The position numbers and the translations under genes were made by a program. The notes under the pieces are model-generated. The model did no database searches and had not been told where the DNA came from. It worked only from the letters and a program-made list of their open reading frames with translations. DNA of 64,000 nucleotides from Octopus sinensis (lineage: Eukaryota), in the NCBI RefSeq assembly GCF_006345805.1, contig NC_042998.1, forward strand, positions 169,818,001 through 169,882,000. Direction: 5' to 3'. Shown here in pieces: positions 6,002 through 55,403 of the stretch. Position 1 is the stretch's first letter; each line of letters begins with the position of its first letter.

Positions 6002-6751
6002 TAGTTAATTTTTTGGCTCAAAAAGCAAAAAGCAAGGCCATGTAGGGGGACATGGAGTTATGTACAGGGTGGTGTTCATGTAAAGAGTTCAGGCCACTTG
6101 AGGTCAAGGGAGACTTTGAACCGAGTGGTCGTCGGCATCTTCACCATCTCGTCTGGCAGCTTATTCCATGGTTCCGCAACCCGGACGGAGAAAGCCCCTC
6201 TCCTTCGATTGAGATGAAATCGTCGCAGATAGAGCTTTTCGGAATGACCCTGCAGCCGACACTCTGGAGCAGGAGTGAAGAGCAGCTCTTTCGAGAGGTT
6301 ACACTTTCCGCTTATGATGTTGTGAGCAAGAATGAGGTCTCCACGGCATCGTCGTTTTTCTAGAGAATAAAGGTCGAGCATCTTCAGCCTTTCTTCATAA
6401 GACAAATTCTTGAGACCAAAAACCATGCGGGTAGCCAGCTTCTGGACTCTTTCGAGATGCTGTATGTCTTTGAGGAGATAAGGAGAAGAGGCTTGAATCC
6501 CGTACTCCAATATGGGTCTCACCAGCGTGACATAGAGCGGTAGGAATATGGCTGCTGTGAGCATTCCGAATGACCGTCGAATCAAGAACAGAATTCTGCG
6601 TGCTTTGTTGGCAGCATGGACGCACTGGGCCGAAGGTGAAAAGGAGGAATCCACCAAGATACCCAGGTCCTTTACCTGATCGGTCCTCTCCAGCAGCAAA
6701 CGACCCGGCTCAAAATCAAGTTGAGTTGCAGGAGGAGAGCCAACTTGGAAT
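6002..6751 (-). mobile_element. 5'-truncated CR1-clade LINE: RT thumb and C-terminal region plus short 3' UTR
   Basis: ORF 6076-6699 has KDLGILVD, LYVTLVRPILEY, LERVQKLATRMV, YEERLKMLDLYSLEKRRCRGDLI, GHSEKL and FSVRVAEPWNKLP, all CR1 ORF2 C-terminal motifs. The frame stays open to about 6750. GC/CpG-rich relative to the flanks. Possible short TSD atgtgt at 5996 and 6752. Confidence 0.92.
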
Positions 6752-7910
6752 ATGTGTGTGTGTGTGTGTCAAGTTTTTCAAAATCTGTTCTAACAATTTG
6801 GATGATATAAAGTTTCAGAATGTTAGTGAAAGATTATAAAAGATTCTAAGTATTTCTTTGAAGTGTGGGATCACAAATGATGTTCCTGTCTGTGAATAAA
6901 ATATTCAGCATTGTAGCAAAATAAATACACTAAGAATGAACACTCAGTTAAACCTAAAAAGAGAAATTCTTTAAAATTACTGTCTGAATAAAGAAGAAAA
7001 GAAAAGAATGAAGACTTCATTGGTATGAAATCCAACACACAAAGTTCAAAAGACTTTTCATCTTTATAATAACATGTGTAGGAAATTGAAAATATGTAGC
7101 ACTGACAAGTAAAAAAAAAATCATGATTAAAGATGTAAAATTCTTTTATGGCAGTTTCAGACTAAGGAAGGTCATAGCATACTATGAAGATGGAAGACAT
7201 TGTTTTTATGTGGTTTATTTGGAATATTCCAAGTTGTTCCAATTTTGATATAAAATAATACAAAAACGAAATTTTTGGTGCTCCAAAATCTAATTTTTAA
7301 CATTCATAAGTGTAAAAGATTATATGTATATATATATATATATATCATCATCATCATATATATGGAAAGAGAGAAAGTACAAAATCTGAAAATGTTGAGG
7401 ACAGAGGTGAAGAAACAAAAGATAGAAAGAAAAAAAAAATAAGAGGAGAAAACAGAGGAAAGTCAAAAATAATAGAAAGTAAAACAAAATGAGGGAGAAA
7501 CTGAATCAAATAAAAAAAAAACAGAACAGAAAAGGGGGTGGTGATAGAAGAAGCAATGAGCAGCAAAAAGGAGAAATTTGCTATGACATTTTAAATTTAT
7601 GACCTATTAAGAGAATAATTTTGTTGGGTTGGAGAAGTTATGATAATAAGCGAGTAGTAATTGTACATTCAGAATTACAAATACCAATAATAATTTACAT
7701 AAGTCTACTGTTAATGAGTGGTCCAAAAAAGATATTTTTCAGACTGGTAGCTTGTAAGTAAAATATAGTTCTATTGTTATAAATATTTGTTGTAAAGATG
7801 TAACTGGTACATTCGAAGGAAAACAATCTTATAATTAAAACTTACATGATACAAATTCCAAAAGTTGAATTTTAAATAAGTGAGTAAGTATAAGGATGAT
7901 AGGGGCTTGG

Positions 7911-19462: not shown

Positions 19463-20710
19463 TCAGGTCATCCCATAAGTTCTGTCCAATTTACCTTTTT
19501 TAAAATTGAATGAAATTTAATAGTGTTTTAGAATGTCTAATGAAATTAAAAATTATTTTTATGCATTTGTGTACATTTAAACTAAATAAATAATATTTTA
19601 CGGGATACTAGAATTAAAATTTCTTTGATTAAAACCATTTCTAACATGGAAGTATCTAAAGAGCATTTGAGGCACATAATGCTTTATGAGTACAAAAAAG
19701 GAAACTCAGTTTATGGGGAAGAATGCGTGAAAGAAAGAACTTGCAGAAGATGGTTTGCAAAATTCAGACGTGGAGATTTCAGCCTTGTAGATGAAGATCG
19801 AACAGGACGTCCAGTTGAGTTTGATGATAAGCTCCTTGAAGCATTACTTGAAGAAAATCCTGCATTATCAGTTGAAGAATTGGCAATCAAGCTTAGTTCA
19901 AACCATACAACTGTTTATCGTCATCTTCAACAACTTGGAAAGGTTCCTAAATTTGGAAAATGGGTGCATCATGAATTGTCCGAAAACAACCACAAATCCC
20001 GAGTTGACATCTGCTCTTCTCTCCATTCTTGTGAACTCATTTCACCCTTTTAGGATAGACTTGTGATGAAAAATGGATCTTCTATCGAAATGTTAAATGT
20101 CATAAACAGTGGCTAGGTAAAAGGGAAAAAGCTCAACCACAACCGAGAAGGGAACTTCATGGGAAAAAGGTTCTTCTCTCTATCTGGTCAGATTGCAAAG
20201 GAGTAATTCACTTTGAATTGTTACCACCTAATGCAACAATCAATGCTCAAGTCAACTGTCAGCAATTAGAGTGTTTGAACCAAGCTTTGAAGAAAAAAAG
20301 ACCCGCTTTAGTGAATCAAAATGGAGTGATGTTTCATCAGGACAATGCATAACCCCGCACTGCAAAGATCACATCACAGAAGATCGAAGAGCTTGGTTGG
20401 GAAAATATTCCTCATCCACTTTATTCTCCTGACCTTGCTCCTTAAGACTACCATTTGTTTCGTAGTTTACAGAATCATTTAGGGGACATAACTTTCGCAA
20501 GCCAGGAGGAGGTCGAAACAGACATTTCAGAATTCTTTGCTTTGAAACCAAAAGAGTTTTACATTGAGGGGATTAAAAAGCTTATAAATAGATGGAAGCA
20601 AGTCATAAATAATCAGGGAAAGTACATTGATGATTAAATTTCAATAAAATGACACTTGATCACTTGTTTTCTTTATTCAAAATTTGGACAGAACTTATGG
20701 GATGACCTAA
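19463..20710 (+). mobile_element. mariner transposon, both ends present but defective
   Basis: 27-bp TIR t(c/t)aggtcatcccataagttctgtccaa with 1 mismatch. TA duplication at 19461-19462 and 20711-20712. Length 1248 bp. Confidence 0.96.
19646..20637 (+). pseudogene. mariner transposase pseudogene (D,D34D)
   Basis: Motifs RRWFAKFRRGD, RTGRP, WVHHEL, DEKW, HQDNA and YSPDLAP*DYHLF, with 34 residues between the 2nd and 3rd Asp. Stop at 20051, frameshift near 20065, further stops at 20350 and 20443. An in-frame deletion is likely in the first HTH near 19705. Confidence 0.95.
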
Positions 20711-51689: not shown

Positions 51690-52080
51690 CTCTCTTTTAC
51701 TCTTTTCAGTCATTTGATTGTGGCCATGCTGGAGCAATGCCTTTAGTCGAGCAAATCGACCCCAGGACTTATTCTTTGTAAGCCTAGTACTTATTTGATC
51801 GGTTTCTTTTGCCGAACCACTAAGTTACAAGGATGTAAACACACCAGCATCGGTTGTTAAGCGATGTTGCGGGGACAAACACAGACACACAAGCACGCAC
51901 GCACACACACACACACACACACGACGGGCTTCTTTCAGTTTCCGTCTACCAAATCCATTCACAAGGCTTTGGTTGGCCCAAGGCTATAGTAGAAGACACT
52001 TGCCCAAGGTACCATGCAGTGGGACTGAACCCAGAACCATGTGGTTGGTAAGCAAGCTACTTACCACACAGCCACTCCTA
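51690..52080 (-). mobile_element. SINE family A, near-intact CpG-retaining copy
   Basis: Full head (taggagtggctgtgtggtaag), B box and tail on the minus strand. Confidence 0.92.
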
Positions 52081-54710
52081 TGCTTATAAAGCATTACTAC
52101 TGACACAGGTGTGGCTTTGTGGCAAGAAGTTTGCTTCCCAACCACATGGTTCTGGATTCAGTCCTACTGCATGGCACCTAGGGCAAGTACCTTTTAATAT
52201 GGCCCCAGGCTGGCCAAATCCATGTGAGTGGGGCTGGTAGATGGTAATTGAAAGAAGTCAGTTGTATATATGTATATGCACATCTGTTTATATGTATATG
52301 TGTGTGTGTGTGTATGTGTTTATGTTTGTGTTTCCTTGTGAAAATTGTAAATGAATGTCACTGTCACATAAGTAGTGTTGTTCATTTCCAATATTCTGTA
52401 AGAACATTTCTGGCTATGGGGAAATATTACTTTGCTTGGAAACAGGTGAAGGTTGGTGATGAGAAGGGCATCTGGCCATTGAAAATTTGTCTCAATAAAC
52501 TCCATCTGACCCATGCAAACAGGGAAAAGTGGATGTTAAATGATGATGATGACTACTCTATTATTAATACTAGTTTAGAATTCAAAGGAAACAATCTAGA
52601 TAACACATTAAATGACCAGTTTGGTTGTGCTAACAATGGAGTCTGTAAATGATTGCTGAACGTGTTGAAAATAGCAGCCAAGTTTCCCTTACATTAAATT
52701 TTTCTATCTTAGAAAGTTGACACCAGTACCATTTGAACTCAAGAATGTGGGACAGAGCTAAATGTGGTAAGTAATTTAATATGGTACACCATTTTCCCTG
52801 CCATTCTGCCAGTTCAATAATTTCTGTCAGACACATAGCTACACATTTTGTGAGGCTGGGTGAGGGTGTAGTCAATATAATTGCCCTCAATACTTTACTG
52901 GTACTTAATGCCACCAGACAGATAAAAGACAAAGAAAATCTGGTTGGGTTTTAAACATACTAAGAAAAGGATATAATTATACACAGCAATGCATTACCAC
53001 TGTTGTGGTCGTATCTATAATCGTTTTTTTTTTTTCTTTTCTTTTCTTTATTTGATACAACAGCATTCCTTAATATATATTTTCTGAAGTGTGCAAACAA
53101 ATCCAAAATCATACCAGAATGATGCATGAAGAATAAAATCCTGAATGTAATGTCCTGCTGGTTTAAAATAGGGAGTATTCAAAAAAGGAATTAGCTATAA
53201 TGGAGTGCTGATTTTTTTCTGTCTTTCATACATACACTCTTTCTCATTCCCCTCTCTTAGATTATGCTGAATAGATAGTATATATTGGAACACTAGTTAT
53301 TAAAATTCATCATTAAAAATCATATCTTTGAAAGTTTAGTATGTGGTTTCAGATATAAAAGATAGAATACAATTCATTAATTATTTTACATTTAAATTTA
53401 GTTTATATTTATAAAACATTCAGGTATTATGCCCTATATATCAGACTTGACTTTTATAAGGTTTGAAATTTAATATATATAAAATATAATTCCTGCTTTC
53501 AAATGACTGTTAGGTATTACAGGCCGTGCATAAAATGGTGTGAAAGACAACTTTTAATGTTCAGGAGTGGAATGATCATTTGGCTGTGTCTCTTTTTGCC
53601 TCTACCAAAAGAAAAGGCAGACTGAAGCCCTCAGGCAAGATTGGATCCCTTGATTAGTTTCTTATAAAATATACTATGTGTTTCAGTTAATTTCAAAAAT
53701 AACGATTAAATAGCACAGCAAATGTTTACAGGCACATTTTGACATGATTGGGTAGCATGTGTTTACAAGTTGATCAATAATTCTTATACTGTACATTAGC
53801 AACCTTGACTTTTAGTTAAATTACTTTATTTCTGATGCCATCTACTAAACCAGGATGGCTGAACTCCTGTTCTTTGAATTTTGAGTAAAAAGTAATTTTC
53901 GATAAAGGCAAACACTATTTTAATAGAGTACACACTTCTATCACCTGTTTCACTACAGATTCCACTATTATTAAATCAATCACTGCAGTTACTACTGTGC
54001 AAATACTAAAACTAATATATTTACAAATTAATAAATTATTTATTCAACAACATAACCCTTAAATTTTACATATGAAATTGCTTTTAATGAACAAGATAAT
54101 TTTCATTGAAAGAGAATAAAAATACCTAGTTTATTCATTATAAATGATACAATTTTTCCACAAGTATAACAATTATAGCAGGAGCACTTTGTGTCTACAA
54201 ATTTCTATTATCATATGAAAGTGCTAAAGTAAGAATTTGACTTTCAAATGTTTTGTGAACAGCAAGGTGAGCCAGTCTCTGAAATATGTATAATGTGGCC
54301 TGTTTGAATAAATTTACTATTTTTAAAAGGAAATAAGAGCCACCTCCACCAAAAAAGACAAAAATAGACCTCTCAAACAGCATTCAGAATAACATAATCA
54401 AGTCTTTGGCTACTTCTACAAGAAAATCAGAACTAAATGAAATCAAGGCAAAAACTATATATTCATTTCTTATGAATGAAACAACAGCTGTTTCCTCACA
54501 ATGAACAGCTATATGCATACACTATGTGTCTGATAATGAATCAAAGAATGCTTCATTGAAGTATGTGTCTATACTAGTGAAGAGCTGGAGAGGATGGCTG
54601 TTTCTCTTTCAATTTTTTTTTTAGAGAAAAAAAAATGGCTACAGTTCTATATTTGAGAGATGAGGAATTATGTACATTATTTACATTTGTCCTCATCTTG
54701 TTTGTTGTTA

Positions 54711-54754
54711 GCACAATGTTTCGGCTGATGTACTCTCCAGCCTTCATCAGGTGT
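54711..54754 (-). ncRNA. Minimal type I hammerhead ribozyme motif
   Basis: CAC CUGAUGA A GGCUG GAGAGUACAU CAGCC GAAA C AUU GUG. Intact core, stem I CAC/GUG, stem II GGCUG/CAGCC. The stem III palindrome ACGU appears mutated to ACAU. Confidence 0.72.
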
Positions 54755-54828
54755 CCTGGGGGGAATTTGGAACCTGGGTTCTCATTCCTAAAGTATTTTT
54801 CCGATGTTGTCATTATTATTATTCAGGC

Positions 54829-54897
54829 CACTGCATGGAATTAAACTCAGAATCTTGGGGTTAGTAGCCTGCACTCTTAACCACTATGCCGTGTGCA
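54829..54897 (-). promoter_or_regulatory. tRNA-like sequence / internal Pol III promoter (not a functional tRNA)
   Basis: cggcatagtggttaagagtgcaggctactaaccccaagattctgagtttaattcc has an A box (GGCATAGTGG), an anticodon-like loop CTACTAA and a decayed B box (GAGTTTAATTCC). The stems pair poorly. Confidence 0.65.
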
Positions 54898-55403
54898 CTT
54901 ATGGAGTGAATTTTAGGGCTTATAAATCTAATATTTTCCTATCCTTCCTTAAAACTGGTTCCCATATGCTACTCATATCTGCACTAGGTTTGCTTATTAT
55001 GCCCTAGCATATGTGCTACCTCATTTAGTTTTCATATTTTCCAGTCTGGAAGTGAAAATGAGCTAAGAGGAATAACTAAGAGTTAACAATGGGATATATT
55101 AAATAACATACAGGATAAATTTTTGATTTATAAAAGTTATTTACAAATCAAAAATTTATCTTGTCTGTCACTAGATAAAGACTGTTGTTAAATTTGAGTT
55201 ACTTCTCTTAGCTAATTTTCAGTTTTTTGTGTGTGTGTGGTCTAAGAGACCAGCAGCCACCATATTCTTTACCATATAGGATAACTCTGATGAGCATAAA
55301 GTTATATAATCGGATTGTTACCTAACACTCCATTGTATTGTTTATGTCAAACTGAGTGGTAAGATCAACCGTGATGGATATTTAATACTATACTTTTTGG
55401 ATA

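Follow-up and report, generated by a model that had tools for sequence, protein, structure and literature searches.

The question raised by this locus is whether the terminal repeat (pLTR) of a Penelope-like element (PLE) can itself carry a tRNA-derived promoter, and which copies of the element such a promoter could account for. In an earlier note, an ORF remnant, A and B boxes, an AAT tract, a hammerhead and a hairpin had been read from the minus strand of the window (the whole 64-kb stretch of DNA that was analysed). All of these parts were recovered where that note had placed them, and were delimited against the family as follows:

54642..55045, minus strand: decayed 3' end, cut short on its 5' side, of an element of Penelope/Poseidon type; it comprises ORF end, pLTR and tail and is 86% identical to the family consensus, and homology to other copies ends on both sides.
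54920..55045, minus strand: C-terminal end of the RT-GIY-YIG ORF, with an 8-nt deletion that shifts the frame; the stop ends at 54920.
54898..54919, minus strand: short 3' UTR.
54824..54897, minus strand: tRNA-like head without a cloverleaf; 8 nt of its 5' end are deleted here.
54881..54891, minus strand: A box, with two changes against the family consensus.
54837..54848, minus strand: B box, both CpG bases decayed here.
54806..54823, minus strand: (AAT)n tract, which varies in length among copies and in them is often broken up by other retroelements; (AAT)4 lies at 54823-54812.
54783..54785, minus strand: ATG presumed to open the consensus ORF of 835 codons in those repeats that lie 5' of the element body.
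54710..54755, minus strand: minimal type I hammerhead motif, predicted cut 54715/54714; the stem III palindrome and one stem I pair are lost here.
54658..54698, minus strand: 9-bp hairpin with one arm at 54698-54690 and the other at 54666-54658; the first of two family 3' ends falls in its loop.
54642..54673, minus strand: optional Penelope tail of about 30 nt between the two 3' ends.
55055..55065 with 54632-54641, minus strand: possible imperfect target duplication, uncertain; 10 nt separate 55055..55065 from the element.

The copy had rightly been called decayed. Relative to the consensus, it lacks 8 nt from the head's 5' end, both bases of the B-box CpG, the CpG of stem III and one pair of stem I, while the last 27 codons of its ORF remnant still give an 85% match to the family ORF. 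It is an inert, dead 3' fragment, and no second copy of the family was found within the 64-kb window. Elsewhere in the window, two inverted copies of another abundant short repeat (52035-52151) form a hairpin that gave spurious miRNA matches. Judged by their motifs, 6076-6768 on the minus strand is presumably a LINE 3' ORF remnant, and 19586-20053 on the minus strand presumably the remnant of a mariner-like transposase.

Library searches for the two RNA parts gave no call: ARAGORN reported 0 tRNA genes in the window and 0 in 58/58 loci, and Rfam returned neither a tRNA nor a hammerhead match. Because neither program called them, both parts were tested through the family. A DNA search of the 2.7-Gb host assembly yielded 7,470 first-look candidates; at 80-86%, the best 40 of these extend from window position 55045 to about 54640. 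One 21-mer taken from the hammerhead had 6,969 exact matches in the genome (reversed control, 0); since it was intact in just 20 of 65 repeat arms found through ORF queries, these matches suggest some 20,000 arms in the genome. Copies were about 5.5% diverged outside CpG, with CpG heavily decayed, which makes the family old, and an intact copy was not seen. When a headless PLE family was sought in the same genome as a control, 30/30 loci examined belonged to the same headed family. The best-scoring intact RT genes (L307-L336) and many tRNA genes (several of L192-L216) were located on small unplaced contigs, which may not be host DNA.

Alignment of long copies gave a family unit of 2,922 nt, built as repeat, body and repeat. 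The consensus contains a single ORF of 835 codons, RT followed by a C-terminal GIY-YIG domain, and the order head, (AAT)n, hammerhead and tail was found at both ends of it. RVT_1 matched weakly on one family copy; homologs contained RVT_1, with GIY-YIG matches that ranged from weak to passing. The endonuclease has the CCHH motif, the linker motif CX2-5CxxC is absent, and the family has a pLTR, inverted 5' copies, a tail of 30-40 nt and target duplications of 8-12 bp. By the motif definitions in the accessible text of PMC8557442, it is thus classed as an EN+ PLE of the Penelope/Poseidon type. Protein identity was 75% to P0001, 56% to P0010 and 37% over 808 aa to P0108 from an anole.

Whether the tRNA-like part belongs to this repeat was decided by its position. 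In the best whole-region copies of the first alignment the head stood 29 nt past the stop in 29/29 non-self copies, and it stood at the same place in 22/22 copies retrieved by way of the ORF alone in which both ORF end and head were alignable, a count that left out long copies without an alignable head. It also stands 5' of the ORF start in family copies. In the family consensus the A box and the B box are both intact and spaced as in a tRNA; pairing of the acceptor and T stems has been lost, and there is no cloverleaf. When 40 distinct tRNA genes of the assembly were combined into a profile, it matched the consensus once, at the head (E 1e-4). Compared with single tRNA genes (51 genes called in 43 loci), the head had 37-50 of 74 identities over 10 isotypes, none of which could be named as the donor; it may resemble tRNA-Ile(AAT). 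A second B-box-like motif, with one mismatch, was seen in a small hairpin just past the ATG, in the consensus interval between AAT tract and hammerhead (window about 54780-54762).

Had the tRNA-like piece been an independent SINE that inserted into the window copy alone, which has a practically negligible chance, the resemblance of head plus (AAT)n to a simple SINE would be explained. The head, however, occupies the same place in all aligned ORF-linked copies, 26/29 matches to a head-only query continue into the hammerhead-side sequence on the same strand, and no duplication flanks it, and the family-wide fixed position refutes such an insertion. Five loci (L064, L066, L072, L077, L078) were broken at the AAT tract on one arm. 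A tRNA-headed pLTR is therefore a real, family-wide feature: the proposal that the tRNA-like part lies inside the pLTR was borne out, ORF end, tRNA-like part and hammerhead stay linked across copies, and both boxes are present in the consensus.

The same feature was sought in other PLEs. Among 80 related PLE loci on metagenome contigs, 34 had enough sequence past the ORF end, and A plus B boxes were found in 0/34 of these 3' regions by a test that detected them in 26/30 decayed family copies; the head thus appears special to this family among the PLEs compared. In 3/34 regions (L368, L378, L434), CCAAT and TATA motifs about 40 nt apart took the position of the head, just upstream of a variant hammerhead core, a layout resembling that of Pol II promoters.

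The 5' ends of copies were then informative on what the head may do. Arms were taken as the first 96 of the 6,969 exact 21-mer matches in genome order, without regard to their 5' extent, from 90 loci on one contig. The head was reached by 54 of them; 13 stopped between anchor and AAT tract, and 29 stopped in the tract or at its border. At least 10 of the 29 tract-ending arms adjoin 3' ends of other retroelements, and their true starts are hidden because those ends abut the tract. In seven loci (L135, L155, L161, L181, L185 and the related L143 and L186) the abutting sequences were 3' ends of LINEs with a restriction-like endonuclease domain, which suggests that the (AAT)n tract is their target; by motif, these LINEs are presumably R4/Dong-like. 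A second repeat with an AAT tail was found in the same tract at L158, L160, L184 and L284, and at L184 the head resumes about 600 nt upstream and starts at -2.

Among the 54 head-reaching arms, 32 started at -20..+10 relative to the head, none at -180..-21, 11 further upstream and 11 inside the head (+11..+74). The start rate per base at risk was 13.8x higher at the head (binomial P 2e-19), for a bin that was drawn after inspecting the data, with six loci giving two arms each and 7 arms reclassified by BLAST; the gap at -180..-21 is independent of all three choices. With the head-only query, 26/29 non-self matches began at -17..+7. Solo copies without a fold-back ended at -9..+9, several with abutting target duplications, and what begins at -14 to -20 belongs to fold-back arms and not to the element. 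Of the clustered arms, 12/32 had no long inverted partner, and 5 of these 12 showed a target duplication of 8-12 bp; for all solo arms the figure was 6/44 (null 1.8%). Four of the 11 copies that reach the ORF (L093, L145, L179, L162) were truncated at -181 to -197, three of them within one base, in an AAT-like stretch of the ORF that is a possible microhomology hot spot.

Because most short head-reaching copies begin right at the head, the head is likely a Pol III start site. Long copies gave a divided picture. Three ORF-bearing copies, L118, L275 and L281, begin at -2, -2 and -7. In the ORF-start set (40 loci, several of them duplicates, most truncated below the head), six copies covered the 5' end of the head: L292, L295 and L302 carry upstream ORF-end sequence, and three start at or inside the head; at L272 and L306, ORF-end pieces are present and the head is deleted. 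Half of the informative full-length copies thus extend upstream of the head, and longer RNAs must have existed, since ORF-start copies carry ORF-end sequence there. L281/L286 (G000:C4:154068241-154072184) is a perfect palindromic insertion, both arms of which contain the ORF start and are joined at the head.

Those upstream extensions are also what would be expected if the head were a passenger in RNAs made by Pol II from further upstream, the pile-up of 5' ends being produced by a hairpin at the head through an RT stop, cDNA fold-back or a nuclease cut. In the consensus, the final ~18 nt of the 3' UTR repeat the head's first 20 nt imperfectly and in inverted orientation, and the resulting hairpin of -13.4 kcal/mol spans the head start; 20/32 clustered arms have an adjoining inverted arm, many of them centred on the loop of that hairpin; and known pLTR promoters are of the Pol II type, as far as described in the accessible text of PMC8557442. 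Ends produced by a stall, however, should lie at the stem's 3' base (about +10 to +20) and not at the solo-copy ends given above, several of which abut target duplications. In addition, both boxes have been kept at tRNA spacing while the stems decayed, and the 3' UTR arm looks like a fossil of a fold-back of the head itself, which joined head to ORF. On balance, the passenger explanation is considered improbable.

The reading preferred here is that this high-copy PLE terminal repeat opens with a tRNA-like cassette which is likely an internal Pol III promoter and likely sets the 5' end of the RNA. Pol III would start a few bases upstream of the head, in keeping with the solo-copy ends, and, as the sense strand has no TTTT, would carry on across ORF and 3' repeat. 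RT would then prime at internal positions, the tail sites, as has been shown for PAc of the anole. Priming in the repeat that begins the RNA would give SINE-like copies of about 270 nt, and priming in the 3' repeat would give long, usually truncated copies; the hairpin at the head would let finished cDNA fold back, which would yield the head-to-head palindromes.

Copy 3' ends fell at two sites about 30 nt apart in 88/96 arms (49 at the first, 39 at the second). In the accessible text of PMC11167929, the same tail signature is attributed in PAc to two internal priming sites. The hammerhead was recognised from its core (CUGANGA / GAAA / NUH) plus stems I and II, and not from the score of a model. 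Stem III kept its four-base palindrome in 61/96 arms, and CpG decay was seen in 21/96, the window copy belonging to the decayed form. MFE cofolding returned stem-II-swapped dimers and not the hammerhead dimer, a result that counts for neither side. Cleavage is predicted for the motif only in dimeric form or with help from a protein. It was probably not used in making the short copies, because these span the cut site. For PAc, the ribozyme is reported to need protein and the uncut RNA to be the main template (PMC11167929, accessible text).

The ORF probably starts upstream of the hammerhead. Its ATG lies about 70 nt before the predicted cut, so that hammerhead and hairpin would fall within the first part of the coding sequence; the peptide encoded across the hammerhead is conserved in P0010, the 56%-identical homolog. 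A hammerhead overlapping the ORF start is likewise described for PAc (PMC11167929, accessible text).

The earlier note had further proposed that the repeat seeds SINE-like or retrozyme-like derivatives moved by a PLE, and this held in part. Short, head-starting units are common and bear Penelope insertion signatures; a separate lineage was not recovered, and the short unit was not seen in direct tandem array at any of the 90 loci. Outside CpG, divergence was 5.5% for short and 5.4% for ORF-linked copies (32 vs 33 copies), and no diagnostic allele was found between the two sets outside the anchoring 21-mer (best unanchored P 0.008 over ~250 columns, uncorrected). Since short and ORF-linked copies agree in age and alleles, a separate SINE lineage is not supported, although 32 + 33 copies are few enough for a genuine SINE sub-lineage to have been overlooked. 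Of the features of SINE2 elements, one is present, in that copies have at their 5' ends a tRNA-related head containing both boxes, and a non-autonomous lineage distinct from its partner was not seen in these copies. A better explanation of the short copies is that their cDNA was primed within the pLTR and extended as far as the RNA's 5' end.

A division of labour between two promoters was also considered, in which the products of Pol III, transcribed from 3' repeats and solo copies, would be limited to short RNAs running from head to tail, amounting to a SINE mobilised by Penelope, and the coding RNA would come from Pol II read-through. This comes closest to the idea of the earlier note and is partly compatible with the preferred reading. 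Short head-starting copies far outnumber long ones (7,470 vs 345 first-look candidates), every solo copy holds both boxes and both priming sites, and no Pol III RNA would have to be translated. The equal divergence and lack of separating alleles just described speak against it, however, as do the three ORF-bearing copies that begin at the head and the scarcity of TTTT along the whole ORF, and it is regarded as doubtful, with a small but real chance.

The coding RNA was examined through Pol III terminators. The 2,922-nt sense strand contains 0 TTTT and 16 runs of three T; 3.1 TTTT were expected in the ORF from synonymous shuffles (P 0.023). In 27 long copies the density was 0.48 per kb vs 2.5 in T-poor control frames. 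Among 39 control frames from other elements, which represent few families and lie partly on unplaced contigs, 0/39 lacked TTTT and 12/39 lacked GGGG, and GGGG is likewise absent from the family consensus. In related PLE ORFs without a known head, 3/61 had <=0.5 TTTT per kb (median 3.0). The absence of TTTT is weakly consistent with Pol III.

RNA-seq reads of a related organism covered both strands at equal depth, 69-77% of them ran into unrelated sequence, and no start site at the head was found in these reads, for which library strandedness and size selection are not given. Equal strands and the lack of a free start are as expected for dead copies read within host transcripts. The reads break off at the head boundary into fold-back or unrelated sequence, which suggests that this boundary is shared in the related organism; one short back-jump junction looks like the product of a single locus.

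Taken by parts, Pol III initiation at the head is judged quite probable, and a full-length Pol III mRNA of the element falls a little short of an even chance. The most far-reaching form of the argument, held tentatively, is that an autonomous PLE swapped its Pol II promoter for a captured tRNA promoter and purged its terminators, so that a 2.9-kb mRNA for an 835-aa RT would be made by Pol III, shedding tens of thousands of SINE-like, ribozyme-bearing repeat copies by internal priming. Counting against it, an uncapped Pol III RNA would still need to be translated. In the prevailing view, an autonomous retroelement requires Pol II, and Pol III promoters are a property of short non-coding parasites; in print, the need of autonomous elements for Pol II is argued in PMC10886601 (accessible text). 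If confirmed, a protein-coding element whose RNA begins at a tRNA head would put both the Pol II rule and the translation of uncapped RNA to the test. It would also offer a direct route from a Penelope terminal repeat to promoter-plus-hammerhead elements like Sm-alpha, and a large family likely annotated as a SINE would be the end repeat of a PLE. That hammerhead and hairpin lie within the coding start, and that the head may drive a full-length coding RNA, had not been mentioned in the earlier note.

No description of a tRNA-headed PLE was found in the literature searched; Repbase, Dfam, most subscription papers and supplements lay outside that search and may record the family. The accessible parts of PMC6962438 and PMC13282606 contain nothing on an arrangement of tRNA head and hammerhead.

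Among known systems, the closest is PAc of Anolis carolinensis, which P0108 (37% over 808 aa) probably represents. As described in the accessible text of PMC11167929 and PMC8557442, PAc shares with the family a single ORF with RT and C-terminal GIY-YIG, the CCHH motif without a linker zinc finger, a pLTR and inverted 5' arms, together with two 3' ends about 30 nt apart and a hammerhead overlapping the ORF start (PMC11167929). In contrast, the pLTR studied here opens with a tRNA-like A/B cassette at which copy 5' ends pile up; those PLE promoters that have been characterised are of the Pol II type with a 5' intron (PMC8557442, accessible text). The hammerhead resembles the minimal metazoan pLTR hammerheads in being type I, with a 5-bp stem I, an unpaired base 5' of stem II and a palindromic four-base stem III (PMC4209133, accessible text), and differs from them in a stem II of 5-6 bp and a consensus triplet GUU, cleavage here being a prediction.

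In the accessible text of PMC6765202 and PMC2770079, Sm-alpha and Sj-alpha of Schistosoma likewise combine, at high copy number, a tRNA-derived promoter of the Pol III type with a hammerhead. Sm-alpha, however, is non-coding and tandem and loses its promoter on cleavage (PMC6765202, PMC2770079), whereas in the present family the cassette constitutes the terminal repeat of an element that codes for protein, the head is retained in copies, which run across the cut site, and repeats are joined head-to-head. Boxes of Pol III type derived from small RNAs, kept in a terminal repeat after the fold was lost, are known from TRIMp3 (Cassandra, Helenus, Ajax); these are short non-autonomous LTR elements, whereas the present family is an autonomous 2.9-kb PLE (PMC10886601, accessible text, for TRIMp3). 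Animal non-LTR retrozymes are similar as short hammerhead units related to pLTRs and likely moved by PLEs; they are defined by tandem arrays, and tRNA, Pol III or a promoter is not mentioned in the accessible text (bioRxiv 10.64898/2026.07.22.740005). RTE-1_DAn and elements related to it, finally, are autonomous retroelements with a tRNA-like sequence as well, but RTE-1_DAn is a LINE and not a PLE, and no promoter role is given for that sequence in the accessible part of PMC5786205.
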